Source of the DNA: a virus
Lineage: Duplodnaviria; Caudoviricetes
DNA length: 64,000 nucleotides
Strand: one strand, 5' to 3'
IMG/VR virus record: IMGVR_UViG_3300001765_000038
Location: 1-64,000 of that record
The position numbers and the translations under genes are program-made. Each line of letters opens with the position of its first letter. Position 1 is the first letter of the stretch. The notes under the pieces are model-generated. The model saw only the letters and a list, made by a program, of their open reading frames with translations, was not told the DNA's origin and ran no database searches. Below, one piece after another: positions 17,519 through 43,346 of the stretch.

Positions 17519-17526
17519 TATTTATA
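17519..17526 (-). promoter_or_regulatory. Perfect late promoter TATAAATA upstream of the fibre gene
   Basis: Plus-strand tatttata overlapping the stop of 17522..17725, 24 nt upstream of the fibre ATG; AGAGG RBS. Confidence 0.75.
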
Positions 17527-17725
17527 ATGAAGATATTTTTTCGAGAACATCTTTAAGTGTTAATTTAATAACACGCACTTCATCTTCTAATTTTCTAATT
17601 TTCTCTTTCATAGATTCTTGTTCTATTTTTCCAGCATTCAAACGATTGCGTTCTTTAATATAGTTTTCATATTCTTGTTTATCAGAATTTATAACTGCAG
17701 TTTTAGTTTTTACTAGATTGTTCAT
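17522..17725 (-). CDS. Small coiled-coil protein of the type that follows the large DUF4815 virion protein in T4-like phages
   Basis: AVINSDKQEYENYIKERN followed by a heptad coiled coil; gene position. Confidence 0.65.
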   Translation of the reverse strand: MNNLVKTKTAVINSDKQEYENYIKERNRLNAGKIEQESMKEKIRKLEDEVRVIKLTLKDVLEKISSL

Positions 17726-20700
17726 TATAACACCATTATCACTCTAAGATTTTTAATTCGCGGAACCGCAGATGTATTAGTAGATCTTAGATCTACTTTA
17801 ATTTCTAATTTATCATATATGTCGATAGAATTGCTAAAATTAAAGTCAAATCTCTTTTCAATGAATTCATTGCTGTTGTTTGTCACTTTAACGTTAATAC
17901 CTCGTGAATCATTATAAATTGTATTACCAAGTGTCCAAACTGCATTATTAAATTCATAATCACCACGACATTTTTTATAATAGATTCTTATCTCAGATCC
18001 ATATGGTAAGTTATAATCATAAAACAATATGAAGCCATCAACGGGAGTTTGCAAAGATATAACTTGCGAACAATAACTTGCTGAATTAGTATTATAATTT
18101 ATTGAAGCTGAATCAGTATAAAAATCATAACTGTAAGCTACAATATCGGCCGTAATTGATTCATAAATCATGTCACTATCATTTCTCACATATAATATTA
18201 AATCAGTACCAGTATTTACCTTATTTATTATTAACATCTGAATACCATCATTAGAAACAGTATTTTCAAATTCTAATGTTTGTCCAACTTTTGCTTTATG
18301 ATAAATTTCAGCTGCTGAAGTACAAACAATAGCGCTTGCTGTAGAATTAAATAGTAATGATACCGAGCCAGAATATAAAATATTTTTATCAATAGGTTTG
18401 TTAGTATCAAAATCATAATTATCTATCTTATTTGAAATCGCATTTACTGAGAAAGTAGAAAGATCTATAATAGGTGATAAATCTGGGTTCTTAGAATATA
18501 ACAAGGCATTTAATGTAAATGATTTTTTACCAGTCAATAATCTATCTTCATTTTCTTTTGATAACACCCAACCAGGTTCTGTTAAATAAGCACTTCTTTC
18601 AAGTTCAATTTTTTGATATGTATTTTCTTTAACTCTAGAATCATTTGTTTTTGCAAACGAATAATCAATGTAAGTTCCAAGTAATACAAAATCATTGCCA
18701 TCTAAATATAATACATCATATTTCTTATTACCCATCATATACAATGAGTCATCACCACTCCAAGTTGAAGCAGTTGCAGCTGCAATATTAATAATGAATG
18801 AATCTGTAGTTGCGTCATTTACTGCAAACAGCATATTGTCTGGATTGGCAAAACTAGACGAAACAGCTTGTAGAGATGTATTTTCATTAGCATTAAATTT
18901 AACATAATCACCGTTAATCAAACCGTGACTTTCATGTAATACTCTTGCTTGTGTGAGACCGACAGATGTTTTTATAGGATCAATAATCATTTTATCAGCA
19001 TTAAAATAGTTATTGTTTAGATATACTGTTCCTGCACCGCTTATATCAAATTGAGCTTTATACAGAGTAAAGCATAAATCTTGCATTTGATATGCAGTCC
19101 ATGATGATCCATTCTGTGATTGCAACATAGTACCTAAAGTGGGCTGTTTAACACACATGTTTCCGTATATATCTAATTCTCCTAATTCTGAAGTCCATAC
19201 AGTAACTCCATTATCCATCACATAATTAGAACCTATCACTATACAATATTCTGTTTCATTTTTCAAAAATACAGGTGCATTGAATGTGAATGTAGTTGAT
19301 ACTAATTTAGTGGAAGAATAATTTAATTCATCTGCATTTTTAACAACCGTGCTCATTGGAATTGCTTGAATAGCTGGATAACCATTGACCATTTCACGTA
19401 GTTCAACAAACACTGGATAAGCATTCTGTTTCACATTGTAAAAATATAAATCTACTTTTGTGACAAAAATACCAGCTCCAAACGAATCAACCACAAATGA
19501 TTGTGCTAATGGATCACCACCGCCACCACCGTCACCACCGCCACCACCGCCATCAATAAAATCAGCTAATATAGTTGAAATACTACTGCGAGCTGTAGCA
19601 GTTGTTGGAGGTGGTGATCCAAATATAGACGGTGCAACAGTAGGTGCTGGTGTTGGTGCAGGAGTAAAAGCAGAAGTTGTGATACTTGAAACATTAGTAG
19701 ACGATGTTGTCCAATTTTCTTGTACAACTTGAGACTGTTGAAGTTCAACATCAACTATATTTGCATTTTTAACTGATAATATGTCTGTCTGTGTAGTAAA
19801 TGATAATCCATGAGGATCGTAAGTAGCAACAGCACTTGTAACTGAATTGACTATATTCTTGTTATCACGAATCTGAATATTAACTATTTGTGCTAAAAAT
19901 TTTATATTGTCGTTATTTGGAAAAACCAATACACCGTATACTGATCCAGAAGGACTTGATACAAATGCGTCTTTAGTAATACTTGAAATTGTGACATATG
20001 CTTTAGACGTAAGACCAGTAACAGTTTCACCTTCTAAAAATGTTCCTTGTATATTTGTCACTTTAAGATTGTCATATTCATCTGTCAATAGAATAGCAGT
20101 TGCTTTAGATGTAGATCCAACAACAATCTCACCTCTATCTAGAATATCATAACTATTTGGACCATATTGACGATATTCTAGATTAGTTTGAGAAATAGGT
20201 GAATTCAAATAATTTAAAAATTCGCCTACCTTACCAGTATATGCTAATGAATAAGCAGTATCAACATAATCAGTAACTTCAATATTATCAATATATGCAT
20301 ATAGTTGATAATTGGGTAAAAAGTTTTGACCATAAAACACGATTACTTTTTGTCTTGCATAAACATCCCAAACGGTGTTTTGAATTCCAGTAATTCTACC
20401 TAATTCATCTTGTCTTTCTTGAGCAACTGTTTCTGTACCAAGTTTCAACTGTGATACATTATTAATTCCATCAATTGTAGTTACTGTAGTTGTAGTACGA
20501 GTGGTTGTTGTTGTGGTACCTGCAATTGTTGTTGATGAAGATACACTATTTGTTGAACTTGAATCTATACTTGTCTTTGATGATGCTATTACTCTAGCAG
20601 TATCTTTCCAAGCACCCCAAACAGTTTTGAGAATTCCTAATCTTTGTGCTGCTTGTTGTAACGAATTATAATTACCATCATTCAATTGATTAACATCTGG

Positions 20701-23700
20701 TAATGATTCACTATCAATCCATGTATCATAAGAAGGAAATATATTTAATGATCCAGTACGTTTCTTAAGAGTTGAAAATGGAGTGACACTGTTAGGTGTT
20801 GTTGCAATTTTGTTTGATGATACCACAGCATCAATAAATGGTAATGTTACTAGATCACCTGTTACTTGATAATGTCTTGCTTTTCTCAATTCTGGTGAAT
20901 CTTCTATTAAGTTTATATTAGCAACAGAATATGTTGGTCGGCATTCTTGTGTGTCGTAATCGATTGCAGCTTTAAAACCTGGATCAGTCACGTTTGCTCT
21001 TGAATGATCAACAAATGTATCAATAAAGAATCCAGATTTAAATCTAGATAAACCATTTTCATCATAAACAGTAGATGACTCAACTGAATTTGCGGCAGAC
21101 ATTGATAAACTCAAAACAGCATTGTTTAACCGCTTATCAATAGAACCAATAGCCCGCATGGTATAACCATTCATTCTTATTTCATCTAATTTTATATTTT
21201 TCGTAACGTCGATGATATATGGATCTAATGATATTTTAGCTATCGATGTATAAGTGGGCAGTGCTGTTGGAACTATAGGCATGTCACTCGCATTACCGTT
21301 AGTAACTCGTAATGATCCAATGTCTCCCACTTGAAGAATATCATATCTTGGTAGATAATATTGATATGCTACTTCAATATCAAAATTTGATGATAGCGGT
21401 TCTGTTACAGAAGCATTATTAAGTGTACCATCAGTAACAACTGTTGATTTTGTAGAACTAAATGATGTGTTCTTATTGAGAACATAATTTCCATTTCCAT
21501 CAATGCCCACATCAGAACTTTTAATTTGTAATGCTAATACATGATTATCATATCCTGATATATCACTCCAAACGCTCAATGTATCTAATTGAATTGGGCT
21601 AGATCTACTTATTGTTGAATTAATACCTAATTGACCCGCCCAGTTACTTCCCCATACCCACATTGTACCATTATTTTTGATTGCATATACAGAACCCCAA
21701 TTAGTACCAATTTTATTCCAATCATTTAATGAACCAACTTGACATGGAGAAGATTGTGTAATAAGGTTGTTGCGACCTAATTGACCATATTCATTTCTAC
21801 CCCACGCCCATAATGTATTATCATTTTTGATTGCAAATACTGAATTCCAATCTTGTGTAACTGATTTCCAATCACATAAACTTCCAATCTGTACAGGAAC
21901 AGATTTGCTTGTTGGAAATTCTGTACTAAATTTCCCATCATTATCAAAACCCCAACCCCATAAAGTACCATTTGTTTTAATAGCAAAAAATGAAGATGCA
22001 TATGCATTTTCACTTAATGTTCCCCAATCACTCATTGTACCTACTTGTGTTGGTGATGAACGATTATTAGTATCTCCTAATCCCAAATCACCGTACACAT
22101 TATATCCACAAATCCATAAAGTGTTATCATCTTTAATTGATGCCCATGATGCATAACTACAAGTAATTTTATTCCAATCACTCATTGTACCTACTTGTGT
22201 TGGTGATGAAAGATCTATATTTGATCCTTGACCTAATGATCCATATCCATCATATCCCCAAGTCCACAATGTTCCGTTAGTTCTTTTTGCTAATGCAAAC
22301 AGATAACCGGCCGTAACTTTCTCCCAATTTCTTAAATTTTCGTTTGGATCAGAATCTAAACTTGCCATATCGCATGTTAAATTTACTGCTGTGCCGAGCA
22401 TTGTGGGAGAAGATAAATTATAATCAGTTGTTCCGTGTCCTAACTTTCCATGTGAATCATAACCCCATGACCATAATGACCCATCTTTTTTAATTGCATA
22501 TGATGCAGCACCGCCCGCAACAATTTGTGACCAATCTGCTAATGATCCTATCTGTACAGGTGATGATTTGAAACTTATTGAATTATCACCAAGTTGGCCA
22601 TGTATATTATAACCCCAAGCATGTAAAGGTGATGTTGTTGCTTTTCTAATATAATTTGTTGAACTTGATGAATCATTAGCAATATCTTCTGGCGGTGTAA
22701 CACCATCTGCACTAATTTCTAATGCTAAACTAGCAGCAACTGGTCTAAAATCTAAATAATCACTAATCAATTTGCCTTTATACACAGGCATTTTTTCTAA
22801 TGGAAGATTATATGAATCAACTGACATATAATCACCATCTGAATGTTCATAATAATTGAAAGTTATTTGAATAGGTGCAGCTGGTTCAAAACTGTTAATA
22901 CTTGTTATAATACTGTTGTCATAATAGAAATCATTTATATTCGGTGACAGACGGTATTTGTCTGTAATATCTAATTCATTAAGCGCTGAATATTCAACAA
23001 AAGTATTTCTAAAATTTAAATTAAATTTTGCACCACCTGATTCTCTTATAGAAAGAATCGAAATCACATCAGGTGTACCCAAATCAATTTCTGATTTATG
23101 CACACTGTTTAATGTATTAAAATAAACTGTTTTTATTTTTTTAGTTTTTGTTTTTTCTTTTACTGATTGTTTGCTCTTTTTGACTGGTACAATTGCTCTA
23201 TACATTGTATCTGGGTTCAGATTTTTAAATGTAACTTGTTTAAAATCTGAACTAAGAATCATATTATCACTTGAAGGAACTGGATTAGCAGTAAGTGAGT
23301 TATCAATCAATGCAATATGTGGTAAATCAGTACCTTGTAAATATAATGCATATCCATCCATGAATGCATTTTGAATATCAATCAATGATGTAATTTGAGC
23401 AGGACTTGAACGATCAACAATATCACCTAAACCCAATTGCCCAGTATCATTATAACCACAAGTCCAAACTGTATTATCATTTTTAATAAGCATTGATGAA
23501 TATGTGCTAGCGTCTGCAGACGCCCAATCACTTAAAAATCCTACTTGGGTTGGCGCTGAACGATGAACAATATCATCTATTCCTAACTGACCATAATCAT
23601 TTCTTCCCCACGCCCATGCAGTTCCATCAGTTTTTGTTACTATCGTCTGACCATAACCACAAGCAACTTTATTCCAATTACTTAATGTTCCTACTTGTGT

Positions 23701-24792
23701 AGGGCTTGAGCGTTCTATAATATCTTTTAGTCCTAACTGACCATATAAATTATAGCCCCAAGTCCATAACGTATTATTGGTTTTAACTGCTACAGAAAAA
23801 TCATGAGTTGCTATTTGACGCCAATTACTTAATGTTCCTACTTGTGTGGGAACAGATACACTAAAAGCTGAACTTAACCCAAGTTGACCGTTCCATCCAT
23901 TACCCCACATCCATAAAGTACCATTAGATTTAATCGCACTAACTGTATCCCACCAACAACTTATTTTTGCGCCAGACCAATTATTTAATATACCAACTTG
24001 TGTTGGTGATGAATGATCAACATCTAAAGTACCGAGACCAAGACAGCCATTGTTATCATCACCAGAAGTCCATAAAGTGCCATCAGTTCTAATAGCAAAA
24101 AATCCATGCCAGCTAGTTGTAACATACGTCCAATCACTTAATGTTCCCACTTGTGTAGGTGATGATCTATCAGTATCGCCAGCATCACCCAAACCCAAAT
24201 GCCCTTTAAAATTATAACCACAATTCCACATCGTACCGTCGGATTTAATTATTGAATTTACATATCCGCAAGAAACACTTGTCCATTTATCTTGACCAAA
24301 CATAATCATCACTGGGGCAGATCTATCATTAAGATCACCAAGACCTAATGATCCATAATATTGATTATATCCACATGTAAATAACCCAGGTGCACCTGAA
24401 ACTGGTTGATAACTTTTTCCATCTTTATTATCAACTTTTCCTACTAAATATAAATTAGGATTTGATGAAGGAAAATTCTCGTCTATATTATGTAAAACAA
24501 TAGATAATTCACCAGTTGCGGAACTTTTAAGTTGATATGAACGATTGACACAATAAGAAATTTGTGTTTGATCATTATCGTCCTTTAGAGTTTTAACATA
24601 TGGATGTTGTAAATCTCGTAAAAAATTAGAATCACCTTGTAACTTTACATCCTTTTTCCAAAAATATGGAACATTAGGTAAAACTGAGTTTGCAGTATTA
24701 GTATCATTTATTTTGGTAGTTGGAATAATAGCATTTCCATAAGAATCAATACCAAACTTTTTTACTTTATAATAATCAACTTTTTTTGCCAT
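17725..24792 (-). CDS. C-terminal part of the second DUF4815/VrlC-like virion protein, with two inserted RCC1-like 7-blade propellers
   Basis: Colinear with the latter ~70% of 26611..33072 (YLDFRP, YYLPRYD, ENGLSRFKSGFFID, DPLAQSF, VPRIKNLRVI); RCC1-like repeats at about 23330-24392 and 21525-22630. Confidence 0.85.
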   Translation of the reverse strand: MAKKVDYYKVKKFGIDSYGNAIIPTTKINDTNTANSVLPNVPYFWKKDVKLQGDSNFLRDLQHPYVKTLKDDNDQTQISYCVNRSYQLKSSATGELSIVLHNIDENFPSSNPNLYLVGKVDNKDGKSYQPVSGAPGLFTCGYNQYYGSLGLGDLNDRSAPVMIMFGQDKWTSVSCGYVNSIIKSDGTMWNCGYNFKGHLGLGDAGDTDRSSPTQVGTLSDWTYVTTSWHGFFAIRTDGTLWTSGDDNNGCLGLGTLDVDHSSPTQVGILNNWSGAKISCWWDTVSAIKSNGTLWMWGNGWNGQLGLSSAFSVSVPTQVGTLSNWRQIATHDFSVAVKTNNTLWTWGYNLYGQLGLKDIIERSSPTQVGTLSNWNKVACGYGQTIVTKTDGTAWAWGRNDYGQLGIDDIVHRSAPTQVGFLSDWASADASTYSSMLIKNDNTVWTCGYNDTGQLGLGDIVDRSSPAQITSLIDIQNAFMDGYALYLQGTDLPHIALIDNSLTANPVPSSDNMILSSDFKQVTFKNLNPDTMYRAIVPVKKSKQSVKEKTKTKKIKTVYFNTLNSVHKSEIDLGTPDVISILSIRESGGAKFNLNFRNTFVEYSALNELDITDKYRLSPNINDFYYDNSIITSINSFEPAAPIQITFNYYEHSDGDYMSVDSYNLPLEKMPVYKGKLISDYLDFRPVAASLALEISADGVTPPEDIANDSSSSTNYIRKATTSPLHAWGYNIHGQLGDNSISFKSSPVQIGSLADWSQIVAGGAASYAIKKDGSLWSWGYDSHGKLGHGTTDYNLSSPTMLGTAVNLTCDMASLDSDPNENLRNWEKVTAGYLFALAKRTNGTLWTWGYDGYGSLGQGSNIDLSSPTQVGTMSDWNKITCSYASWASIKDDNTLWICGYNVYGDLGLGDTNNRSSPTQVGTMSDWGTLSENAYASSFFAIKTNGTLWGWGFDNDGKFSTEFPTSKSVPVQIGSLCDWKSVTQDWNSVFAIKNDNTLWAWGRNEYGQLGRNNLITQSSPCQVGSLNDWNKIGTNWGSVYAIKNNGTMWVWGSNWAGQLGINSTISRSSPIQLDTLSVWSDISGYDNHVLALQIKSSDVGIDGNGNYVLNKNTSFSSTKSTVVTDGTLNNASVTEPLSSNFDIEVAYQYYLPRYDILQVGDIGSLRVTNGNASDMPIVPTALPTYTSIAKISLDPYIIDVTKNIKLDEIRMNGYTMRAIGSIDKRLNNAVLSLSMSAANSVESSTVYDENGLSRFKSGFFIDTFVDHSRANVTDPGFKAAIDYDTQECRPTYSVANINLIEDSPELRKARHYQVTGDLVTLPFIDAVVSSNKIATTPNSVTPFSTLKKRTGSLNIFPSYDTWIDSESLPDVNQLNDGNYNSLQQAAQRLGILKTVWGAWKDTARVIASSKTSIDSSSTNSVSSSTTIAGTTTTTTRTTTTVTTIDGINNVSQLKLGTETVAQERQDELGRITGIQNTVWDVYARQKVIVFYGQNFLPNYQLYAYIDNIEVTDYVDTAYSLAYTGKVGEFLNYLNSPISQTNLEYRQYGPNSYDILDRGEIVVGSTSKATAILLTDEYDNLKVTNIQGTFLEGETVTGLTSKAYVTISSITKDAFVSSPSGSVYGVLVFPNNDNIKFLAQIVNIQIRDNKNIVNSVTSAVATYDPHGLSFTTQTDILSVKNANIVDVELQQSQVVQENWTTSSTNVSSITTSAFTPAPTPAPTVAPSIFGSPPPTTATARSSISTILADFIDGGGGGGDGGGGGDPLAQSFVVDSFGAGIFVTKVDLYFYNVKQNAYPVFVELREMVNGYPAIQAIPMSTVVKNADELNYSSTKLVSTTFTFNAPVFLKNETEYCIVIGSNYVMDNGVTVWTSELGELDIYGNMCVKQPTLGTMLQSQNGSSWTAYQMQDLCFTLYKAQFDISGAGTVYLNNNYFNADKMIIDPIKTSVGLTQARVLHESHGLINGDYVKFNANENTSLQAVSSSFANPDNMLFAVNDATTDSFIINIAAATASTWSGDDSLYMMGNKKYDVLYLDGNDFVLLGTYIDYSFAKTNDSRVKENTYQKIELERSAYLTEPGWVLSKENEDRLLTGKKSFTLNALLYSKNPDLSPIIDLSTFSVNAISNKIDNYDFDTNKPIDKNILYSGSVSLLFNSTASAIVCTSAAEIYHKAKVGQTLEFENTVSNDGIQMLIINKVNTGTDLILYVRNDSDMIYESITADIVAYSYDFYTDSASINYNTNSASYCSQVISLQTPVDGFILFYDYNLPYGSEIRIYYKKCRGDYEFNNAVWTLGNTIYNDSRGINVKVTNNSNEFIEKRFDFNFSNSIDIYDKLEIKVDLRSTNTSAVPRIKNLRVIMVL

Positions 24793-24802
24793 GGTTTTTA
24801 AC

Positions 24803-26602
24803 CTATATTAAATCTGTATATACAACGAATGGATCGCCTGGGCTTAATTCAGCATTTAAATCGTTTCCTTCACCTGTAAATGCAGCAGTATACGAGGTAG
24901 GACCAGAACCAAAATTATATTGCCATAATCCACCTGGCAATTGAGTAACATTTCCTAAAATTTCTGCGTAAAATGTACCATCTGGTGCTCTAATTGATCT
25001 AGCATCTTTGTTCAAATTATAATTTTGATCAATCTTTAAATCAAAGATATATGCTTTATATGTTGCAACTGAAGATGAGACATATAATGTTGTTGGGTCA
25101 ATTTCTCCAAACGTTTCGGTATTATATTCAAAATTTCTAATTTTACAAACACCTATCGGTAAATCATTATAACTATATATGACATGATTAATTAGTGCTC
25201 TATTATTTTCATCTATATTTGTTAAAACTGGCAACCCTCTAACCCCAGTAACGATCAAATATTGACCAACTGGGCTTGTTAAAAAGTAATTATTAGATTG
25301 TTTGAAATCTCTAGTTTTATCTATTGGTGCTAATTTAAAGCCATTGGTTACATCAACTTCTTTACCCTTGATATACATTTTGCCGCCAGAAACTTTAACT
25401 AAAGCGACCTTTGATCTATATAATTCATCTTCTAATGTTAAATTATCTGTATGAGGATAATATCCATTATTGTATTTTGGATTAGAAACACAAACCCAAT
25501 TAATTGATCCATCTAAAATTTCATTTACTTTTATGACTGGAATTGTAGATCCAGAAACACCATCATTGAGTGCTACTAAATTATACGTTATATCATTTTG
25601 GGTGATAGTAATAACATCATCCATTAAATATGGAGTTGCTGCTAACCAATCTCCTCTATTGTTATTTCTATATTCAATGAACTCATATTTTATAGGTTTT
25701 AAAATATAATCACCAGATTCGTCATATGTGCGTCTAGATAAAATAGTACCTAATTGGCCAAGTTCAGTTTTATCTACTATAGTTTGAACTTCACCATCTT
25801 TAACACTTAATAGTGGAATAAAATTTGTATTAGTTAAATCTGAAAAATAATCATATTTAGTCAATACTAAATCTATATGCATTCTATCAGCACCGACCGC
25901 AACTGGATTGTTAAATCCTGCTGAATTATCATATAAAGAAGAATCATCTGATACTGTAACTATTGATGTAACTACATCAAATCCTACAACATAAGAAGGT
26001 CTTTTATCAAATTTATTGAGCGATATAGTTTGTTTTCTATTTTGAACAAAGTATCCGTTTATATAATAAACACCACTTATAACTGTTGCTAAAGAACTAT
26101 TTGATTCAAAATCATCTACATTTTTAATTGAAACATATCTACTTTTATCTTCAATATATAATAATTCTTCTGTTCCATATGTTCTTACTAATTCTCCTTC
26201 TGGAGTGGTACCACCTGACCGATAAAACACATATAACATAGGTGGATCAGTATCAGTAGCTTTATCAGCATGCACAACATATGCATTTATTCCAGTTATT
26301 GAACTTATTATATTTTTACCAATAAATTCTTCTATGTAATTAGATACTGCTAACCCATTATAAAATTCATTCAATTTTATACCGAATGTATTGGGTTCAT
26401 ATGATACGTTTCCAGGAAATACCATTGCTCCATTACTAAAAGTAAAATCAGCAACTCTTTTTAATTGCTCTTGAATACCCGATTGCAACTGAGTAAGTTC
26501 TCGAGACTGGAGTGCAGTACTTGGATTGAATATTATTTTATGATAATTTTTAGATACATCATAATCATCATAATATGGAGCTTCTGAATAAATTTTAGTC
26601 AT
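24803..26602 (-). CDS. N-terminal part of the second DUF4815/VrlC-like virion protein
   Basis: APYYDDYD..KNYHKIIF, LQSRELTQLQS, GVYYINGYFV, RRTYDESGDY; colinear with the first ~580 aa of 26611..33072. Confidence 0.85.
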   Translation of the reverse strand: MTKIYSEAPYYDDYDVSKNYHKIIFNPSTALQSRELTQLQSGIQEQLKRVADFTFSNGAMVFPGNVSYEPNTFGIKLNEFYNGLAVSNYIEEFIGKNIISSITGINAYVVHADKATDTDPPMLYVFYRSGGTTPEGELVRTYGTEELLYIEDKSRYVSIKNVDDFESNSSLATVISGVYYINGYFVQNRKQTISLNKFDKRPSYVVGFDVVTSIVTVSDDSSLYDNSAGFNNPVAVGADRMHIDLVLTKYDYFSDLTNTNFIPLLSVKDGEVQTIVDKTELGQLGTILSRRTYDESGDYILKPIKYEFIEYRNNNRGDWLAATPYLMDDVITITQNDITYNLVALNDGVSGSTIPVIKVNEILDGSINWVCVSNPKYNNGYYPHTDNLTLEDELYRSKVALVKVSGGKMYIKGKEVDVTNGFKLAPIDKTRDFKQSNNYFLTSPVGQYLIVTGVRGLPVLTNIDENNRALINHVIYSYNDLPIGVCKIRNFEYNTETFGEIDPTTLYVSSSVATYKAYIFDLKIDQNYNLNKDARSIRAPDGTFYAEILGNVTQLPGGLWQYNFGSGPTSYTAAFTGEGNDLNAELSPGDPFVVYTDLI

Positions 26603-26610
26603 TAAAAACC

Positions 26611-29600
26611 TTAAGCAAGAGCAATTAATCTAAAGTTTTTGATCCTAGGCACTTTGGATGTGTTATTAGATCTAAACACAACTTTAACAGTAATTTGATC
26701 ATATTGTACTTCTGTATTATATTTATTGACAATATTATTCATATCATATTCATGTTCTATAAATGTATCATATTTTTCTACATCTTGATATACATCATCT
26801 TCTAATTTGATCCATGGTAATTTCTCAATGTTTGTATAATCAGACTTTATAGCAATTTTATAATAAACATCAATGAATGCATCTTTAGGTTTATTGTAAT
26901 CAAAAAACAATCTAAATCCTGTTGATGGTTGAGCTAATTCAACTATACTTGTTACATAATTTGATAAATTACTTGAACCATCTGAAGCAATAAAATCTAC
27001 ATAATGATCATACACCTGAATTGATACAGGAACTGATCCTAATGGAGTAGGCACTGATGCTGTTGGTAAAATACCATCAACTGTAATAGTTAATGTTGTC
27101 GTTCCATCTGTATAAACTTTAGTAATCATCATTGGACTTATTGATCCAACGGTAGTATTATTTAAAAGTAAATATCTACCCACCTTCAATGTATTGAAAT
27201 TATCAGCTAAATCACCAACAATACCACCTGTAATAGTGATTGTATCATCTAATAATGTTATTGTACTTCCATAATAACCAGAAGTAGTCAAATTAATGAT
27301 ATATCTTTTATCTACGTCTAAATTAATAGTTGGTGAAGGATTATTAATCTTATTTCCTATTGTATAAACAGCATATGAAGGAAGATCTATAACTGGAGAA
27401 AGATTTTCATTTTTACTTAAAATGTATGCTTTAAGTTTAAATGAACTTTCTTTTGTAAAGATGTCTTCATTTTCTTTAGATAAAATAAATTGTGGATTTT
27501 CAAATGTCACATTTTGATTTATTTGAATTGGTATTTCATCTGGTTGAACTTCAATTGAGTTATTTACTAATGCACTGCTATTGAAGGTGTATTGAATATG
27601 TGTTCCTGGCAATACAAAATCTGCACCATTAAAATACATTGTATCCATGCGTCTATCTGAAGTTGCAATGCATTCTTTGTTTCCATAATGACCAGATGTT
27701 ACTGCTGCTACTGGTAATGTGATTGTATAAGTATCCAACTCAACATTTGATACAGTAAATTTACTATTAAGTTCTGTTTGTGAAGGATGTGTCAAATTAG
27801 TTATAACATTGCTAAATGTTACACTTGCACCATTTATGAAACCGTGATTTTGATGAGTTACTCTTACTATTTTTGAACCAGAAGTAAGTTTGAAAGGATT
27901 GATACCTAACATTGACGTTTCAGTATTATTATTCTTAAATGTAAACACACCTGTATTAGCAGTATCAAATTTAGCTTTATATAAAGTAAAACACATGTCA
28001 GTCAATTGATCTGTATCCCATGTGCTGTTATTTTGTGATCTAAAGAATGATCCAGCAGCAGGTTGTTTAGTGATAATTTGACCATCTAAACCAGCCTCAC
28101 CCATTTTAGCAATCCACACCTTAGAATCACTTTGATCTGATCCCATAACGATACAATATTCAACACCATCTTTAAGATATACAGGAGATGGGAATGTGAA
28201 TTTAGATGGAGCTAAAGCTCTACTAGATCCTCTAAGTTCTCTTGGCATTTTTGTTAATGCACCAAACGGTACAATCATTGGACCTGGATATCCATTAACC
28301 ATTTCACGAATTTGCAAGAATATAGATGCTGTAGAATTAAGATCAACTGTATGAAAATAAACATCAACAGCTGTCACAAATATACCACCAACATCACTAA
28401 CTTGGAATGATTGTGCGATTGGATCTAAACCTATAGGTGTGAATGGTCGATAAGCAATAAATAGTGCTGGTAATCCACAACCGTAACAACCTGTATTAGT
28501 TCTTGGCGCTTCTGTTGGAGCAGGTGCACGAGTCGGAGCAGGAGTTACATATACAATTTTTGTAATAACTCTAGGTGGCGTCGGCGCTGGTGTTGGAGGT
28601 GGAGGTGGAGGTGGTATAGCAACATCTGAATATGTTGAAGATTGAGAATTTGTTGTTACAGCACCCACTATCTTCGACCAATTTTCAGTAGTTTGTTTTG
28701 TATCTGAAACATCTCTTGAAACAATCGTACCATTTCTCACAGTCATAATTGTTGTTTGTTTAACTTGAATTATACCATGACCGTCATATTTTGCTTCGCT
28801 ATTAGTAGTAATAGCGTCTTGTGTGTCGGCATCACGCAACGAAATAGTTAAAATGCCTGCGGGTACTCTAACAGTACTGTTATTTGGTATAGTTACAATA
28901 CCATAAAAATTACCGGCGCTATTTGTCTTAATTGTTGATTCTGTGACAATTTTATCAAAAACAAGTGTAGCTTTAGAACTTTGTCCAACGATAGTTTCAC
29001 CTTTAATAAAGGTACCCTTGATGTTAATAATTTTCAAAACATCTTCAGTTGCTGTTACAAATTGTCTTTCTTCACAAATTGTAATTGCTGTAGCTCCAGA
29101 AGTAGTACCCTTGATGACTTCTCCTCTTTCTAATATATCATATGAATGTGAACCATATTGACGGGCGGTTAAGTCTTGATGATCAATGTTTGAACTAATA
29201 TAATCTAAAAATGTTCCGTTCTTAGATGTATAATATAATGTAGTTGCAGCGCTAGCATAAGAAGTTAAAGGAGTATTTTCGATGAACACACTTAAGCGCA
29301 CATTTGGCATCATCTTCTTGCTATACAATACCACACACTTTTCACGCATCCAAGGCGACCAGAGTTCATCAATAACGTTAGTTACTTGACCTACTGTATC
29401 CCAACGTTCTTGCATTTCTGAATAAACACCTGTTCTGCTCCAATTTAATTGATCTGTACCAGTCTGTGTAGTAGTCAATGTAGTAGCAGTAGTGGTAGTA
29501 GTGGTAGTTCTATTGACAACACCACCGATGTTTTGAGTCGATGAAGCAACTCCTGCCACATTTGAAGATGTTGAAGAAGATAAATTTGTATTAAGTGTTG

Positions 29601-32600
29601 TTCTTGCAGTTGTCTGCCAAGAATTCCAAACAGTACCTAAAATACCAGTTGATTGTGCTATCGTCTGAACAGAATTAAAATTACCTTCAGACTTAGTTGT
29701 AACTGACGGAACAGTAGTGGTGTCAACCCATGTATCACCTACTGGGAAAATATTTAAATCACCATGCATTGATCTAATATAAACATAAGGAGTGATACTT
29801 TCACCACTACTAGCTATATTCTGTTTAATAGCAACAACTTCAGTATATGGTAATGTAACCAAATCACCAGTTACTTGATAACCTTTTGATGCTCTCGAAC
29901 TTGTTAAGCTTTCAATCAATTTAACACTATCAGCATAAAATGTAGGACGACATTCTAAATTACCAGCATCAATAGCACATCTATAGCTTGGATTAGCAAC
30001 ATCACCAACACCATGATCTTTAAATTGATCAACAATAAATCCATTTTTATAACGATTCAATCCATTCTCATCTTTGATTTGCATGTTGCTTGTAGCAATT
30101 TCTAAAGATGTTAAAGAAATATAATATTCAGCGTTTTTAACTCTGCTATCTATTTTACCAATGTCTTTCATTGTGTAACGTTTTAAATCTGCAACTTCAA
30201 TATTGATGTTGTTGGAATTTACTTTAACAGTATATGGTGCTAAACTTGCATATGCCAATATAACATTATCATCATTTGGTAATGGTGCTATTGGTGTGTC
30301 ACTTGGAGTTCCTTGTTCTACTCTAAATGAACCTGTTGTATCCAATTGAATAATGTCTCTTCTAGGAAGATAATATGAATAACTTAAATTGATTGGATAT
30401 TTTGATGATAATGGTTCTGTTTGATACAATGAATAATCATATGGATCATATGGTCTAAAATCTAAATAATCACCAATACTTGCATTATTATATACTGGAA
30501 GTTCTGAATAAGTAAATTCATTATATGAATCAATACTATAATAATCACCAGCACCAGTAGTATCGAATTTTTCAAAAATGATTCTAATTGGGCCACTTGG
30601 AATAAATCCTTGAACTGGTGATATTGTCGAATAACTTAATGTGCTAGCTGAGCTATTAGAAACACAACGATAATTATCTGTTACATCAATATTAAAAGGT
30701 GTTGTTACTGTAACCACAGCATCAGGTGTATTAAAATCAAATTTATCAGTACATTGATAAACGCCTATTAATTTAGAACCACCCGACCATGTAGCAAGAA
30801 TATTATTTGAACCTATTACATCATTGAGTTTCGTATAATCAGTATGTGCTATGCTTCTAATTTTTTGCTTTTCTTTAGCTGCTTGTTTTTCTTTTCTTAT
30901 GATCGCTTTAAGATAATATGAACCTGTAGCTAATCCAGTAAGAGTAAGTTCTGTAGAATCTGGTGATTTAGAAAAAGTAACACCATCATTTATACTTAAC
31001 GGATAATTCAAACCAGATGAATTAACAAATAGATAATTTCCAACAACTAAATCAGCAAATGTTTCAAATGGGCGACTTAATGTTATTGTTACAGGAGAAC
31101 CAACACTTACAATGCTAAACATACGATTCACATAATAACTAATATCAATAGATAAATCATCTGCTCCTCTTACTGATCTTACAAATGAGTGATCTAATTT
31201 TTTCAATAAATCAACTGTTCCATGTAACACTGTTCTTTTTACATATATTGAATACCACTCACCGTTATTAGGAATAAATCCGGATCCAAGATCACCAATT
31301 GTTAGTGTTGATGAGTTGAGTACAGTTGAAACACGATATGTTCTATTATCAACACTGATATAATCACCAGAAACTAGTTCTGATGTGAATAATGTACTTT
31401 GACCACTTAATGTAGTACTACCGTATGATTGTACTGAACCGCTTAAGAGTACGTCATCTCCTACCACATAATATAATGCTGTTCCACCATTTTCTTGTAA
31501 AAATCTAACATCTGATATGCCATAACCATCATTCATCATAATTGATACAACATACAATCTATATTTACAATCATGGTAACCAATAATACCACTCTCATAT
31601 TCAATGTTTCTAACATAACATTGTCCAATTAAACCAGCTTCGCCAAGTAATTCAAGATATGGATAAAAGTTTGGTGTTATACCCTGGAAATTTGGAAGAT
31701 TTTGAGCACCATTTACTATAAAATATTGTCCCATATCACTATTGATATTGACATTTTCTATATTTTTATATGTTCTTGCCTTATCGAAGAAAGCAATTTT
31801 ATATCCATTAACTGCTATTTCATAACCTTTGATATATGCTTTTCCGCTATTAATCTTATACACTGCTAATGCAGCATAATCTAATTGTGTTTCGATAGTC
31901 TGTTCATCAGTTGGAGCTTCATAACCAAAATTAAAATTAGGTTTTCTAGTTGTTTCCCATGTTATATTGCCATCACTACTTGGTGTGAAGAATTCATCTG
32001 TTGTTGGTGCTGTTGCACCAGATGTTCCACTGTTTTTAGCAGTAAAAAATACATCATTATAACTAACAATATCTCCTTCTAAATAAACTCTATTTGTAAC
32101 CCATTCACCGCGATCATTATTTCTAAAATCGATTAAATCAATTTTAAAAGGTTCAACTACATAATCACCAGATTCATCGTATGTTCTTCTTGCGAGAACT
32201 TTTTCTAAATCACCTAAACGAGTAGAATTGACTTTAAATTGTTGAGTGCCGTTTTTAACATGTAATAAATCAATAAATTGATCTGATGTAGTATTGTCTA
32301 TTTGATCTTCTAAAAGAATATTTTTAGTAAGTTCAAGTTGAATTTGATATCTATCAGCGCCAGCTGCACCATAATTGGATGAATCAATTGCAATATCTTT
32401 TAATGATGGATCGATAGCAGATGTTACAATATTTTCGACAAAATTTAAACCAACTCTATAAGATGGATAATTACTATATTTGTCAAGTGAAATTGTCTGA
32501 GATAAATTTTGAACAAAGAAACCATTAATATAATACACACCTTCAGTAATAGAAGCTAAAGAACCATAGCCCTTATATGTACTTTCATCGATTATTTTAA

Positions 32601-33072
32601 CTTGAACTTCTGTATCATCTTCAAGATATAATGTTTCATTTTTATTGAATGTTTTAAAGAAATTACCGTCTTGATCTATACCGCCTGCAGTATACATAAT
32701 AAAAATAGTGGGGTAATCATTATCAGTAGATTGTTCAACATGAATCACTGTAGCTTTTACTTGAGTATCAGTACCCACTATTCTTTTAGTTAATAATGAA
32801 TCGATTATCGTATCAGTAGATATATTATTATGAATGAGCTTAAGTTTTATATAATTGGCATTGTTGATAAAATTAATATCACCAGGCACAACCATTGAAC
32901 CATTTTTAAAAATATAATCAGCATTTTGTTTTAATTGATGCTGAAGAATAGATTGAATTTGCGTTAATTCTCTAGCCTGAATAGGGCGGCCGGGAACAAA
33001 TAAAATCTTGTGATAACCTTTTGAAGGATCAAAATCATCATAATACGGCTCGACGTTTAAACTGATAGGCAT
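26611..33072 (-). CDS. Large DUF4815/VrlC-like virion structural protein
   Basis: PYYDDFDPSKGYHKILF, ARELTQIQS, RRTYDESGDY, RYKNGFIVDQF, DPIAQSF, VPRIKNFRLIALA; position after gp8 as in environmental T4-like phages. Confidence 0.88.
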   Translation of the reverse strand: MPISLNVEPYYDDFDPSKGYHKILFVPGRPIQARELTQIQSILQHQLKQNADYIFKNGSMVVPGDINFINNANYIKLKLIHNNISTDTIIDSLLTKRIVGTDTQVKATVIHVEQSTDNDYPTIFIMYTAGGIDQDGNFFKTFNKNETLYLEDDTEVQVKIIDESTYKGYGSLASITEGVYYINGFFVQNLSQTISLDKYSNYPSYRVGLNFVENIVTSAIDPSLKDIAIDSSNYGAAGADRYQIQLELTKNILLEDQIDNTTSDQFIDLLHVKNGTQQFKVNSTRLGDLEKVLARRTYDESGDYVVEPFKIDLIDFRNNDRGEWVTNRVYLEGDIVSYNDVFFTAKNSGTSGATAPTTDEFFTPSSDGNITWETTRKPNFNFGYEAPTDEQTIETQLDYAALAVYKINSGKAYIKGYEIAVNGYKIAFFDKARTYKNIENVNINSDMGQYFIVNGAQNLPNFQGITPNFYPYLELLGEAGLIGQCYVRNIEYESGIIGYHDCKYRLYVVSIMMNDGYGISDVRFLQENGGTALYYVVGDDVLLSGSVQSYGSTTLSGQSTLFTSELVSGDYISVDNRTYRVSTVLNSSTLTIGDLGSGFIPNNGEWYSIYVKRTVLHGTVDLLKKLDHSFVRSVRGADDLSIDISYYVNRMFSIVSVGSPVTITLSRPFETFADLVVGNYLFVNSSGLNYPLSINDGVTFSKSPDSTELTLTGLATGSYYLKAIIRKEKQAAKEKQKIRSIAHTDYTKLNDVIGSNNILATWSGGSKLIGVYQCTDKFDFNTPDAVVTVTTPFNIDVTDNYRCVSNSSASTLSYSTISPVQGFIPSGPIRIIFEKFDTTGAGDYYSIDSYNEFTYSELPVYNNASIGDYLDFRPYDPYDYSLYQTEPLSSKYPINLSYSYYLPRRDIIQLDTTGSFRVEQGTPSDTPIAPLPNDDNVILAYASLAPYTVKVNSNNINIEVADLKRYTMKDIGKIDSRVKNAEYYISLTSLEIATSNMQIKDENGLNRYKNGFIVDQFKDHGVGDVANPSYRCAIDAGNLECRPTFYADSVKLIESLTSSRASKGYQVTGDLVTLPYTEVVAIKQNIASSGESITPYVYIRSMHGDLNIFPVGDTWVDTTTVPSVTTKSEGNFNSVQTIAQSTGILGTVWNSWQTTARTTLNTNLSSSTSSNVAGVASSTQNIGGVVNRTTTTTTTATTLTTTQTGTDQLNWSRTGVYSEMQERWDTVGQVTNVIDELWSPWMREKCVVLYSKKMMPNVRLSVFIENTPLTSYASAATTLYYTSKNGTFLDYISSNIDHQDLTARQYGSHSYDILERGEVIKGTTSGATAITICEERQFVTATEDVLKIINIKGTFIKGETIVGQSSKATLVFDKIVTESTIKTNSAGNFYGIVTIPNNSTVRVPAGILTISLRDADTQDAITTNSEAKYDGHGIIQVKQTTIMTVRNGTIVSRDVSDTKQTTENWSKIVGAVTTNSQSSTYSDVAIPPPPPPPTPAPTPPRVITKIVYVTPAPTRAPAPTEAPRTNTGCYGCGLPALFIAYRPFTPIGLDPIAQSFQVSDVGGIFVTAVDVYFHTVDLNSTASIFLQIREMVNGYPGPMIVPFGALTKMPRELRGSSRALAPSKFTFPSPVYLKDGVEYCIVMGSDQSDSKVWIAKMGEAGLDGQIITKQPAAGSFFRSQNNSTWDTDQLTDMCFTLYKAKFDTANTGVFTFKNNNTETSMLGINPFKLTSGSKIVRVTHQNHGFINGASVTFSNVITNLTHPSQTELNSKFTVSNVELDTYTITLPVAAVTSGHYGNKECIATSDRRMDTMYFNGADFVLPGTHIQYTFNSSALVNNSIEVQPDEIPIQINQNVTFENPQFILSKENEDIFTKESSFKLKAYILSKNENLSPVIDLPSYAVYTIGNKINNPSPTINLDVDKRYIINLTTSGYYGSTITLLDDTITITGGIVGDLADNFNTLKVGRYLLLNNTTVGSISPMMITKVYTDGTTTLTITVDGILPTASVPTPLGSVPVSIQVYDHYVDFIASDGSSNLSNYVTSIVELAQPSTGFRLFFDYNKPKDAFIDVYYKIAIKSDYTNIEKLPWIKLEDDVYQDVEKYDTFIEHEYDMNNIVNKYNTEVQYDQITVKVVFRSNNTSKVPRIKNFRLIALA

Positions 33073-33084
33073 ATATGTTCCCTT

Positions 33085-34551
33085 TTAATATTCTAAAACT
33101 AAGTGAATATCTTCTATTTGCAATGCATTTCTAATAATAGGTATTCTATTTTCAAAGTAAATTATTTTTCCAGTGTTATGTGCGATCTCTGGAACTACTA
33201 CGTTTGCAAGAGGTTCGTTAGAAATACTTCCTCCCACTACTGAAATTGTGTCACCAATGTTAAACCCATTAAATGCTGACCAATTTGATGTAGAAAGTGG
33301 GCGTGAAAGATTTACTTTCAACACTTTTGTAGCAGCATTCCAATCAATCACTCGAGCCCTAGAACCTGTTGTATTATCAACAATTTCTGTATCAACTGTA
33401 AATGAAAGACCAGTATTAGTAACAGTCAATCGATAGCTTGCATCTAACGTATCTGCATTAGCTAATGAACCAGAGCTAGTCAATGGATTTGTAATCAACC
33501 CTATTTGTCTAAAATCATTATTTACAATGTAATCAGCACTGTTACTTCCTTCAATTTTTGTTCCAACTAACAGATAATTAGATCCCAAATCATATATCGG
33601 ATTCGCACCAAGACCAGTTAATGGTGTATAAATTGGAGTTAAATTAGATCCAGTAACTCCAGTAATAGTAATGGAACAATATGAATAACCCGTTCCTGGT
33701 GCTAATATTGTTATCTTCTGTAGCAAATTGTTTAGGCCTCCGAATGTAGCAGATATTTTTAATCCTGAACCATCACCCTTAATATTAAAAAATGATTGAT
33801 CTACAAGTGTTCCTATTGTGCCAGAATATGCAGCATCATTCGTGCCAGGTGCTGTTACAATGACATTATAAATTGCCCCTGCTTGTTCAACAGCAGCTTC
33901 TTGAGCAAGATATTGCAATTCATATGGATCTCCAGATACAGGTTGAGTTGTAACTTGTTTAACTGGATGAAAATTGATTGTTGAAAATCTTACACTATCA
34001 GCAGATGATATAGAAGAAATAAATTTCCAAATATATCCGTCGGCGGTTGTAAATGAACCAAAACCAACACCAACTCCATAATCTTGAGGATTTGATGTTG
34101 AAGCAGTTAAGCCACTGTTATTCCCTAAACAAATATAAACATTACCGTTTGATGTAACAACATAATAATTAGCAACATCTAATGAAATGGGATAAGTAAC
34201 TTGACCAGTTAATGAAATACCCTGAACACCATTATTACCATAATCGCTTCTGTAAATATCGTAATAATTACCACTCGTCCAAACGGTTTTCTTAATACCG
34301 TGAGATACCTCTGATCTTAAAATTCTTTTGAGAAACATCATATTTTCCCAAATGAAGTTTTTACTATTAGTGTTATCGATAGGTGTAGCTGGAGTTGAAT
34401 CAGAAGTTGATTCTAAAGGATTAGTTAAATCCCATCGCATTGAATCACCTAAAAATAAGTATGTATAGATATCTGGAGTCGATCCCTCCATACTCTTTAA
34501 AAATGTATCGACATTGAAAACTCTATAATCATTGGTAATAATAGCTGCCAT
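33085..34551 (-). CDS. gp8: Baseplate wedge subunit (gp8)
   Basis: MAAIIT..RVFN start, W.SGNYYDIYR, NYYVVTSNGNVYICLGN, DGYIWKF, NDFRQIGLITNP, IIYFENR.PI.R...QIEDI. Confidence 0.92.
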   Translation of the reverse strand: MAAIITNDYRVFNVDTFLKSMEGSTPDIYTYLFLGDSMRWDLTNPLESTSDSTPATPIDNTNSKNFIWENMMFLKRILRSEVSHGIKKTVWTSGNYYDIYRSDYGNNGVQGISLTGQVTYPISLDVANYYVVTSNGNVYICLGNNSGLTASTSNPQDYGVGVGFGSFTTADGYIWKFISSISSADSVRFSTINFHPVKQVTTQPVSGDPYELQYLAQEAAVEQAGAIYNVIVTAPGTNDAAYSGTIGTLVDQSFFNIKGDGSGLKISATFGGLNNLLQKITILAPGTGYSYCSITITGVTGSNLTPIYTPLTGLGANPIYDLGSNYLLVGTKIEGSNSADYIVNNDFRQIGLITNPLTSSGSLANADTLDASYRLTVTNTGLSFTVDTEIVDNTTGSRARVIDWNAATKVLKVNLSRPLSTSNWSAFNGFNIGDTISVVGGSISNEPLANVVVPEIAHNTGKIIYFENRIPIIRNALQIEDIHLVLEY

Positions 34552-40500: not shown

Positions 40501-40805
40501 CTATCTTCAGATCCTTTACTTCTAAAAAACTGTTTGCTATTTTTTATTAATAAACTTTTATCGACACTTGTATCTAATGGAAGATTATTAAGAACACCAT
40601 TAGCAATTAGTGTTTTAAACTTTTCATCTGCAGTATCGTAATCATGCTGCTCTAAAGAATAGCGAATATAATCTAATGGATTACCATCATTTTCTAACCA
40701 TTCAAAATAATATTCTATAAATTTTACAAAATTAGCTGCAGTACCTTGAAAGAATGCAGGTACCTGACTTGATAAAACGTGACTTACTTTAGGCTTAATA
40801 CTCAT
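34593..40805 (-). CDS. gp7: Baseplate wedge initiator (gp7-like), expanded with GGxGY beta repeats
   Basis: FVKFIEYYFEWLE, LLIKNSKQFFRSKGSEDSFRFLFKTIYGE, many V.V..GGSGY..P.V.I.G.G.GA repeats, IHDNKKYQDYSYIIKS, LHPTGYSMYG. Confidence 0.85.
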   Translation of the reverse strand: MSIKPKVSHVLSSQVPAFFQGTAANFVKFIEYYFEWLENDGNPLDYIRYSLEQHDYDTADEKFKTLIANGVLNNLPLDTSVDKSLLIKNSKQFFRSKGSEDSFRFLFKTIYGEDVEIDWGRDLYTKSSDSVYRKNIILALKKPNLEATVRMIKGAVDAVNITDSDYGIYLTPEVSFVRNINDDLTDNLPTVSFTMSGGALNTFTIIDGKSHWTLPPTVEFTGTNTTPIKIQLILDSNGTVIDSHILDPGSGYIGTPTLTWTVSDTRDAKVRALLNNSKVSSIEILDGGTNYINTPSISFDLPTYDYTSLKGNRIVQVGEYATAIVDDVISTVINGTEYYILYLQKKGLFGNFNTDSIVRATINGSDIIGLSTPIFSDIELNYRGSGYKKGQVINFDDDGAGGSLSIDATSFGSVDTAIIANGGSGYTVGDKVTSDDALGKGFSGFVSSIDGVDLNTITVMELDEINFLNKGYDFQINDLLYIYGGDLNIEDAPTGSKLAEIQVTGIVTSSVLNSITINNGGSKYAYTSFAILPDANSNSPLRQIRTDYTSYDNGVVETTKGAIKISKNPIGAITKVDWQLTDSNLGDSTVSVVVNGVNGLISPTIATGAITAVSVDNEGINYVDPIVVVNTTTGTGAEFDVVIDEFGSITDVIIIRQGSNYGVSDTLIVKEAKGSGAVLTANLKNGGINTFDIISRGEFFEINKYGVNKYTIQGGHGSGLDLDLYYRPLRIFISNPGQNYLDYTSTISEGHGVGFSAEPNIKNGVITDILMTNNGSGYTWALVEIVTSVGVNFRGTAVLSADQIVSITINDGGYDYDVMDTIIISGDGIAATAEISELKNGTIKSISVTSSGYGYHHGCLARVNSKLRNPLSAASITPVIDYGKITSISITDGGLGYFDSVNITNINWNPSTAIITVSVDTSLLLNVGDVISIGGVNPSSYNGSYIINEFNIAKDLFTATTHSTLGAYVSGGFVASSESEIEIYYDDTSPHLATYAISGSTTKSITSISVDAGGSGYYSNAEREPLILTVNGSGIGATAVATVNLNSGAVDSIDVTDGGEYYSFPPDITIVGDGTNATAEATITDYVKSILVQYEGEGFVKKPNIVITAPNNPLGVQATATANVALLVTSGTFVSRIEVLQGGYGYTIGNTSVSIINGGGSNATAVPVINGGIITAIDIVDGGSGYTSHPTVQITGDGAGAAADAWIPCRITSINITEEGSGYSKTTPPTVTAIGGYGNGAILTPVIDSKVDKINVLTPGSGYTTASVTVDDSAKGGTGAELLPILENGSFVDVLVVDGGQNYTGVTITIQGGKINGTEAVLTPVIENGIITRVGITNPGTGYYYGTYATVIGDGTGAVVELTVDTGITRMEIINSGSGYSAHDTVLVVDDVAPPGTLPGGGASLIPIIKDGKIITAYYSNQGQGYHNPTVTVQGSGTGAIIEAYADRPIVNATLTTAGQQYTHASVKVTGDGNNAVLRANISNNSIQNFNVTYKGNRYSQMPNLNISDNSGYGAISKITIQDGGYGYKEFPVLTVTSNIGTGAEIRSFSKSIGQIESIKFTDYAIGVSSVPMIRFPATIAVSENVNFITNEYVYVKQDPAPIDIFSVPHARVVDIDRIRNLLYVDDMSETYEFITETGYFLTLEGISQDYILHEYSDTIVEGSTLVGEKSKSECVALKYNRAQGTGILNGVGIYDNTLIKSQSLTSSPLLKIHDNKKYQDYSYIIKSGIPIESYSSEVNNILHPTGYSMYGDIKIVTHTKVARMIAHFTQNEDALDLSSIRNLVLPTTEPTFYANYNYENWRQENDPIFLYDADTIPEYEFSYLDGVPYNVNSASVTTIIESKEEIGTGTYALASDDITISLTAHGLEVDDRLILSFTSGGCIAGEYYVKSKTADSFVVTAKTNSYSAQYVGTGSTTVTLNSTLSAVNAGDTIDVVKLLPVINGVIEGDIVDDEYTVATANATTITFTNPVNVTTTGDNNYVTFDVITCSGDVDIFKITAWSESSTSVIKWVIGDTHSFNDIVYYVIAGVPTLYFFTSTEAIATSDNGPVGVNTLWEPLSNIDNYAYTF

Positions 40806-42568: not shown

Positions 42569-42954
42569 CTAACTCTTTCAAATTTAAGTGTTAATTGTTG
42601 AGTTACATCTGAACCTATTACATGAAAGTAAAAGTCAATTGCAATTTCATTATAGTCTGGATTATCACGAATAATCAAATTATCTATATACACTCTTTGA
42701 TCATAATAAGCTAATTGATTTCTTATTTTTTTCAATAGAGTGATGCTCGTCAATGGTGTCAAGTTTTCAAATATCAAACCCGGAATACTAATACCGAAGT
42801 TCGGATCGAATCTCTTTTCAAAATTATTCGTTAAGAATAAAGTCATGAGAGCTTGCTTTACTGAATCAAGATCGTACTTAAGAATAACATCGTCTGTTGA
42901 TGGATGTTTTTTAAATGTGAGACTTAGATCGGAGTAAGTATATGTTGTGGCCAT
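42565..42954 (-). CDS. gp25: Baseplate wedge protein (gp25)
   Basis: YSDLSLTFKKHP, SVKQALMTLFLT..FEKRFDPNFG, YDQRV. Confidence 0.93.
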   Translation of the reverse strand: MATTYTYSDLSLTFKKHPSTDDVILKYDLDSVKQALMTLFLTNNFEKRFDPNFGISIPGLIFENLTPLTSITLLKKIRNQLAYYDQRVYIDNLIIRDNPDYNEIAIDFYFHVIGSDVTQQLTLKFERVR

Positions 42955-43034
42955 AAAAATAAATTTGACTTAATTTGACAATAATGTAATAATTACATGT
43001 CGGTTGGGTTATGGATATTGATAAGTGATTGATA

Positions 43035-43042
43035 TATTTATA
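43035..43042 (-). promoter_or_regulatory. Perfect late promoter TATAAATA upstream of gp25, embedded in an inverted repeat
   Basis: Plus-strand tatttata at 43035-43042 within attgatata-tt-tatatcaat (43028-43047). Confidence 0.75.
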
Positions 43043-43050
43043 TCAATTGA

Positions 43051-43344: not shown

Positions 43345-43346
43345 AA

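Follow-up and report, generated by a model that had tools for sequence, protein, structure and literature searches.

In a marine T4-like phage, two adjoining genes, here termed A and B, together make up a second copy of the giant baseplate protein VrlC, and we conclude that they are very probably separate, co-transcribed genes derived from an ancient gene fission; an error of assembly, recent inactivation and programmed frameshifting are all much less likely origins. The genes are located within a stretch of 64,000 nucleotides (nt), in the following referred to as the window, which covers positions 1 to 64,000 of the IMG/VR virus record IMGVR_UViG_3300001765_000038 (75.8 kb, estimated to be 46% complete). 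Gene A (24803-26602, minus strand) encodes 599 amino acids (aa) and gene B (17725-24792, minus strand) encodes 2355 aa with the N-terminus MAKKVDYYKVKKF, according to the list of open reading frames (ORFs). They represent the N- and the C-terminal piece, respectively, of the second of two tandem VrlC/DUF4815 paralogues, the first of which (26611-33072, minus strand; 2153 aa) is intact. The N-terminal helices and a trifurcation-like region are encoded by gene A, as are strands one to four of a small putative barrel; gene B encodes the last two strands of this barrel, two RCC1 propeller inserts and the conserved C-terminal 1200 aa of VrlC. An earlier note on the same DNA had taken the pair for one continuous gene broken by a single additional nucleotide, and had offered an assembly error, a recent inactivating mutation, a tolerated gene fission or +1 frameshifting as explanations. 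Among these, the tolerated fission is supported by the evidence presented here.

A and B together correspond to one VrlC protein

VrlC is a DUF4815 baseplate protein of T4-like cyanophages, pelagimyophages and rhizophages that is reported to replace T4 gp7, to be tied to double-layered baseplates and to adjoin a hypervariable host-recognition cluster (PMC7029224, PMC4621102). Both pieces match the Pfam family DUF4815 (PF16075) well above the cut-off of 30 bits, gene A with 99.1 bits and gene B with 70.3 bits. Positions 64-191 of the profile are found in A and positions 355-567 within residues 1114-1362 of B, where this C-terminal DUF4815 part lies behind the RCC1 repeats, which give RCC1/WD40_RLD matches in Pfam. 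Residues 9-590 of A align to residues 9-570 of the intact paralogue (38% identity, E 3e-117), and residues 514-684 and 1130-2354 of B align to its residues 703-875 and 885-2152, respectively, the latter with 36% identity. The head of B (residues 1-136; 24385-24792, minus strand), which precedes the first RCC1 insert, is homologous to approximately residues 577-715 of the paralogue. These alignments bear out the collinearity on both sides of the cut that had been described earlier, and the collinearity of A plus B with the 2153-aa paralogue is real and far beyond chance.

In GenBank, A is most closely related to single proteins of about 2100 aa from Kyanoviridae, annotated as 'VrlC' or virion structural proteins and 28-30% identical, among them those of Synechococcus phage BUCT-ZZ01 and Methylophilales phage Melnitz. 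All protein-level matches to GenBank phages were at 30% identity or less, and the junction region, searched as DNA against the phages in GenBank, gave no match. The first paralogue is orthologous to the single VrlC gene of Melnitz, which comes after a baseplate wedge gene, and also to the single 2097-aa gene of BUCT-ZZ01, which is not placed after gp8 in that phage. A and B resemble canonical VrlC in their Pfam scores, in their collinearity with the single chains of BUCT-ZZ01 and Melnitz and in their position within the wedge block, where they lie downstream of gp6, a gp7-like gene and gp8 and directly after gp8 and the first copy. They differ from it in being divided into two cistrons, in forming a second tandem copy and in carrying two RCC1 propeller inserts. 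Canonical VrlC holds the N- and C-terminal DUF4815 parts in one chain, which is not the case for A and B; judged by sequence, the pair is a split variant and not a canonical member of the family.

A structure has been solved for a single relative, a 1152-aa DUF4815 chain in the baseplate entries of Staphylococcus phage 812 (9EUF, 9EUJ, 9EUK; PMC13433997). Residues 6-58 and 168-302 of A match residues 6-58 and 70-195 of the 9euf chain, which belong to its wedge-module part, and the C-terminal region of the intact paralogue also matches the phage 812 chain (E 1.3e-37). Going by the text of the paper, which does not state it for the PDB chain, this chain is most likely the 'arm scaffold protein' gp117, the N-terminal 176 residues of which join two wedge proteins and the remainder of which is an arm that docks receptor-binding proteins (PMC13433997). 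In contrast to A and B, the phage 812 protein is a single chain of half the size and without RCC1 propellers. A role of A and B in the baseplate, which we infer from the homology to this chain and from the literature, would by analogy make A the wedge anchor and B an arm with two RCC1 propellers.

The junction has the anatomy of an ordinary gene boundary

On the minus strand, which is the coding strand for all genes in this part of the window, the junction reads GAT TTA ATA TAG G TTA AAA ACC ATG GCA AAA. Gene A ends with ...GDPFVVYTDLI followed by TAG at 24805-24803, and a 10-nt spacer, GTTAAAAACC, separates this stop from the ATG of gene B at 24792, the frame of B being +1 relative to that of A. 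The junction was found as the earlier note had described it. The boundary as a whole (24793-24805, minus strand) consists of the TAG, a Shine-Dalgarno (SD)-like AGGT at 24804-24801 that overlaps the stop, and 8 nt preceding the ATG. The same arrangement occurs at the boundary between the intact paralogue and A: TAAGGT, 6 nt and ATG are found there and TAGGT, 8 nt and ATG between A and B, so that the stop-overlapping AGGT is common to both. The spacers within this gene block measure 8, 12, 10, 2 and 1 nt, and AGG or GGA occurs 6-10 nt 5' of the ATG. In its construction the A-to-B junction does not differ from the true gene boundaries next to it; it is an ordinary gene boundary. The plausible start that had been proposed for the downstream piece is also present, in the form of a conserved ATG and an SD-like motif.

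In the frame of B, a TAA occurs four codons before the ATG and leaves only 4 codons open upstream of the start; the frame of A past its TAG is closed after eight codons. The RNA of the junction is predicted to be less structured than its shuffles, with a minimum free energy of -12.5 kcal/mol compared to a shuffle mean of -17.9 (z = +1.8), which fits a region open to initiation better than a stimulator of frameshifting.

The split is shared by a diverged relative

A-type orthologues were sought by word-based homologue searches and by scanning IMG/VR and JGI metagenomes. A single one was identified, on the IMG/VR contig IMGVR_UViG_3300001765_000263 (L007). The L007 orthologue is 47% identical to A and is encoded by a 593-aa ORF starting from TTG (586 aa as called). 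Its junction reads GTG TAA TGG, with the stop overlapping the ATG of the next ORF (TAATG), which begins MANVFRKYKVSGF. In an alignment that included fused homologues, the cut falls in the same column in the window and in L007, and the downstream protein starts with MA(K/N) in both, with K in the window and N in L007. In both genomes a stop in the B frame lies 4-5 codons 5' of the ATG. The junction DNA, however, is unrelated, and the frame offset is -1 in L007 versus +1 in the window. The occurrence of the same split in a relative at 47% identity, with a different junction and the opposite offset, contradicts the proposal that a continuous gene had been broken here by +1 nt.

This proposal had been based on the removal of one A from the junction, by which YRLKT would be placed opposite YRVST of the intact copy. 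Removal of the A does open the frame, but the suggested match did not hold up. When the L007 orthologue was aligned along with four fused homologues, TYRVSTV of the intact copy was matched by YYKVKKF in B (residues 7-13) and by KYKVSGF in L007, and no TYRVSTV-like motif is encoded by the B-frame codons upstream of the L007 ATG. Both split forms, from the window and from L007, carry about 9 extra residues at the junction when compared to the fused homologues, so that more than the insertion of a single nucleotide into a continuous frame is needed to explain the junction.

The B orthologue of L007 has a second cut, within its RCC1 region (L007:9700-9760, plus strand). Here, ...IWTWGGTGENPP is followed by a stop, 4 codons, another stop and an ATG, and the downstream piece starts with MANECLGW in the same frame, resulting in pieces of 658 and 1323 aa. 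The boundary looks clean, as if a second fission had occurred, with an in-frame nonsense pair as the alternative.

Probable duplication and fission of the VrlC gene

Trees were calculated on the N-terminal ~600 residues, with branch support from the Shimodaira-Hasegawa-like approximate likelihood ratio test (SH-aLRT). The intact paralogue of the window, the first copy of L007 (P0201) and P0081 form a first-copy clade with a support of 95. A and its L007 orthologue group together (99) and are joined, with a support of 81, by the second DUF4815 gene of the JGI contig Ga0394245_16928 (L092) to form a second-copy clade. In L092, gp8 precedes a tandem pair of intact DUF4815 genes, 2061 and 2017 aa in length (L092:10001-22307, plus strand). 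The second copy of L092 is fused, does not contain an RCC1 insert and is 40% identical to A. Since the second copy is fused in this outgroup, the ancestral continuous gene assumed in the earlier note is supported. These trees are most simply read as a single old tandem duplication and, later, a single fission in the lineage that gave rise to the window phage and L007. B contains two RCC1 inserts (approximately residues 137-505 and 685-1110; 21463-24384, minus strand), L007 only the second of these and L092 none, suggesting that the propellers were gained stepwise after the duplication.

The two-chain form is a rare variant of a giant protein that otherwise almost always occurs as a single chain. 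VrlC was uninterrupted past residue 700 in all 71 informative metagenome loci and in 45 of 46 IMG/VR loci; among the other informative VrlC loci, 116 of 117 thus run through the cut point, the sole exception being the L007 contig. In an exhaustive profile search of 1.84 billion representatives with the sequence that follows the cut, the majority of the 150 best matches were internal, at approximately residues 450-1100 of long proteins, and the few matches near a protein N-terminus turned out to be fragments or artefacts where checked.

Several other apparent splits were examined and rejected. On the JGI contig L094 (L094:2500-2760, plus strand), VrlC is called as two pieces of 437 and 1237 aa, and the homology continues in another frame. 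This break lacks a start codon and is a true frameshift or an assembly artefact; it was used as a negative control. L095 has an N gap at the break, and L011, a contig of low coverage, runs into unrelated sequence. In the ENA contig L010 (L010:4640-4815, plus strand; 6.8x), the primary VrlC after gp8 contains a single in-frame TAA at codon 601, which lies further downstream and at a position unlike that of the cut in the window. The frame is open afterwards; possible explanations for the TAA are a nonsense mutation, an error or stop-codon read-through. P0101, finally, is a short form of 1138 aa, and the genes following it have no DUF4815 match on record. A short VrlC of about 1130-1160 aa is also located after gp8 on several long contigs (L093:8001-11417, plus strand), again followed by genes with no DUF4815 match on record. 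The size is near that of the 1152-aa phage 812 chain, and these proteins seem to constitute a separate, short architecture within the family.

Position of the cut in a structural model

Residues 480-725 of the intact copy were modelled by AlphaFold from a 54-sequence alignment, with a mean predicted local distance difference test score (pLDDT) of 75.7. The model contains strands at model residues 60-63, 67-71, 75-79, 92-95, 98-107 and 110-114; the block pLDDT is 86-94 across model residues 61-110 and drops to about 72 in the last strand. The six strands at model residues 60-114 may be read as a small barrel. The cut corresponds to the turn between the strand at 92-95 (GDYISV) and the strand at 98-107 (TYRVSTV...), so that four strands of the predicted barrel would be provided by A and the last two by B. 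Structural comparison by Foldseek returned chains of the F1-ATPase alpha subunit and of Uba1 (probability 0.98-0.99, root-mean-square deviation 3-4.6 A, 71-85 columns) as well as the first catalytic cysteine half-domain of mouse E1 (2v31; probability 0.60), with E-values that were not significant in either case. The Pfam model E1_FCCH did not recognise the small barrel in the window proteins even at E = 10. The earlier note had described the break as lying mid-domain. This has to be qualified, as DUF4815 in Pfam extends over several structural domains and accommodates inserts that are hundreds of residues long. In the AlphaFold model, however, the cut is located within a single small beta-barrel.

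Alternative explanations for the split

Programmed +1 frameshifting at UUA-AUA-UAG-G, by which A would be joined to B in a fraction of the translations and the amount of propeller-bearing full-length protein would be set, appears very unlikely. The products of A and B are parts of one ancestral protein, and the 2-codon frame overlap ends at a stop followed by G, a context able to pause ribosomes. With the +1 sites of the prfB or Ty1 type, the junction shares the +1 frame of the downstream ORF and an overlap window terminated by a stop codon. In contrast to these sites, however, there is no slippery P-site codon: the only +1 window is UUA-AUA-UAG, where tRNA-Ile would move from AUA to UAU and tRNA-Leu from UUA to the stop UAA, neither of them re-pairing. 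Also a stimulator is lacking, as no SD-like element is located 3 nt upstream as in prfB and the downstream RNA is less stable than its shuffles. In addition, the direction of the shift is not conserved, since the L007 orthologue would need the opposite shift (-1) at a plain TAATG overlap without a heptamer, and B possesses a start of its own with a conserved ATG, the MA(K/N) N-terminus and an SD-like AGG. The earlier note had named an identical split across diverse relatives, together with the detection of separate products only, as the outcome that would speak against frameshifting; the first half of this was found, in one relative, L007.

An extra base due to an assembly or sequencing error, or to a very recent inactivating mutation in this one genome, can hardly account for the split. 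The contig was assembled from a metagenome, the deletion of one A opens the frame, and real frameshift and gap artefacts do occur elsewhere in the family (L094, L095). Unlike in L094, however, the homology does not run on in the other frame, homopolymers at the proposed site are no longer than AA, and stop, spacer and ATG are as clean as at the neighbouring boundaries. The extra junction residues relative to the fused forms and the split in the same column of a 47%-identical relative with unrelated junction DNA are at odds with an assembly error as well as with a fresh mutation, both of which had been considered earlier. It is also very unlikely that the second paralogue is decaying and that A, B or both are non-functional remnants that no longer occur in virions. 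A redundant duplicate could be dispensable, and the additional cut in the B orthologue of L007 would fit such a decay. However, at a GC content of 33.6% a stop is expected about once per 14 codons, as calculated from the composition, and the ORFs of 599 and 2355 codons are nevertheless open, which argues that both genes are still in use. The L007 orthologues (593, 658 and 1323 codons) are likewise open at about 47% identity, the family motifs are kept along the whole length, B has gained two complete 7-blade RCC1 propellers, and the extra cut in L007 is also a clean boundary of stop, stop and ATG.

Gene fission, in contrast, agrees with the fused collinear homologues, with the own start and stop of each piece and with the split being kept in a diverged orthologue with intact ORFs. 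In phage late operons, fissions that leave the stop and start codons overlapping or close together, allowing translational coupling, are common. The stop, 10 nt and ATG of the window, the TAATG of the relative and the neighbour-style boundary are in line with such cases; a difference is that the cut described here runs through a small beta-barrel and not through an inter-domain linker. Some points weigh against an ancient fission of a duplicated gene. The split is shared by one independent relative only, so that its conservation extends to two genomes, and the fused L092 copy joins the A clade with moderate support (81) in a quick search with midpoint rooting. The barrel is taken from a model of the paralogue and not of A and B, the structural matches to it have non-significant E-values, and separate translation, stoichiometry and reassembly of the two products are what we infer from the genes.

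A model for the origin and assembly of A and B

According to the model of gene fission, VrlC would have undergone a tandem duplication in an ancestor shared by at least three marine T4-like phages. The second copy would subsequently have been divided at the hairpin of the small beta-barrel, in the lineage of the window phage and its one known relative. The division would have introduced a stop codon and a new ATG, separated by a short spacer with an SD-like AGG. Each piece would then be translated on its own, with translation of B probably starting by coupling or re-initiation right after A terminates. As the cut is located inside the barrel, the pieces would need to complement each other's strands. 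The two chains may, thus, reassemble non-covalently, and completion of the barrel in trans, with the last four barrel strands of A being complemented by the first two of B, probably rejoins A and B and would rebuild a VrlC-like unit. Within this unit, A would carry the wedge-anchoring N-terminus, and B would form a peripheral arm with the two RCC1 propellers.

A further, tentative idea is that the cut through the barrel represents a deliberate plug-and-socket joint by which A, the anchor, and B, the armed arm, are connected via strand complementation; at present we regard this as possible but rather doubtful. If true, B would be a module that could be swapped or re-armed beside the hypervariable host-recognition cluster while the wedge-binding part is left untouched, and virions might display plain arms, made of the first copy, and armed arms, made of A plus B, together. 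For annotation, two genes should be called without a pseudogene or frameshift flag. The cut parts the wedge anchor from the RCC1 arm, and the pair may serve as a test case for arm attachment and for the evolution of host-recognition modules in marine T4-like phages. The finding is of modest interest for the evolution of proteins and phage tails and has no bearing on recoding.

Genomic context and transcription

The T4-like baseplate block of the window comprises gp6 (40805-42568), a 2070-aa wedge protein and gp8, in this order. The gp8-like baseplate wedge gene (33085-34551, minus strand; Pfam Phage-Gp8, E 7.4e-14) marks the canonical position of VrlC. The first paralogue is located directly downstream of it, followed by A and B, and the gene order is the same in L092 and Melnitz. 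A pattern search identified the T4-type late-promoter motif TATAAATA upstream of gp6 (43035-43042, minus strand), where it would act as a putative promoter, and the next occurrence on the minus strand is at 17519-17526, past gene B. Since no copy of the motif lies on this strand between 43035 and 17519, the genes from gp6 to B, which include the gp7-like gene, gp8, the first paralogue and A, appear to share one long late transcript.

Across the window, TATAAATA was found at 2692, 5201, 15299, 17519 and 43035, in each case on the gene strand (minus). These five occurrences compare to 14.8 expected over both strands, and at least 5 were present in 100 of 100 shuffles, which suggests that the motif is avoided except at late promoters. 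The copy at 43035 is contained in a region of 778 nt (42569-43346) without an ORF of at least 150 aa, which lies between a 5017-aa ORF and gp6.

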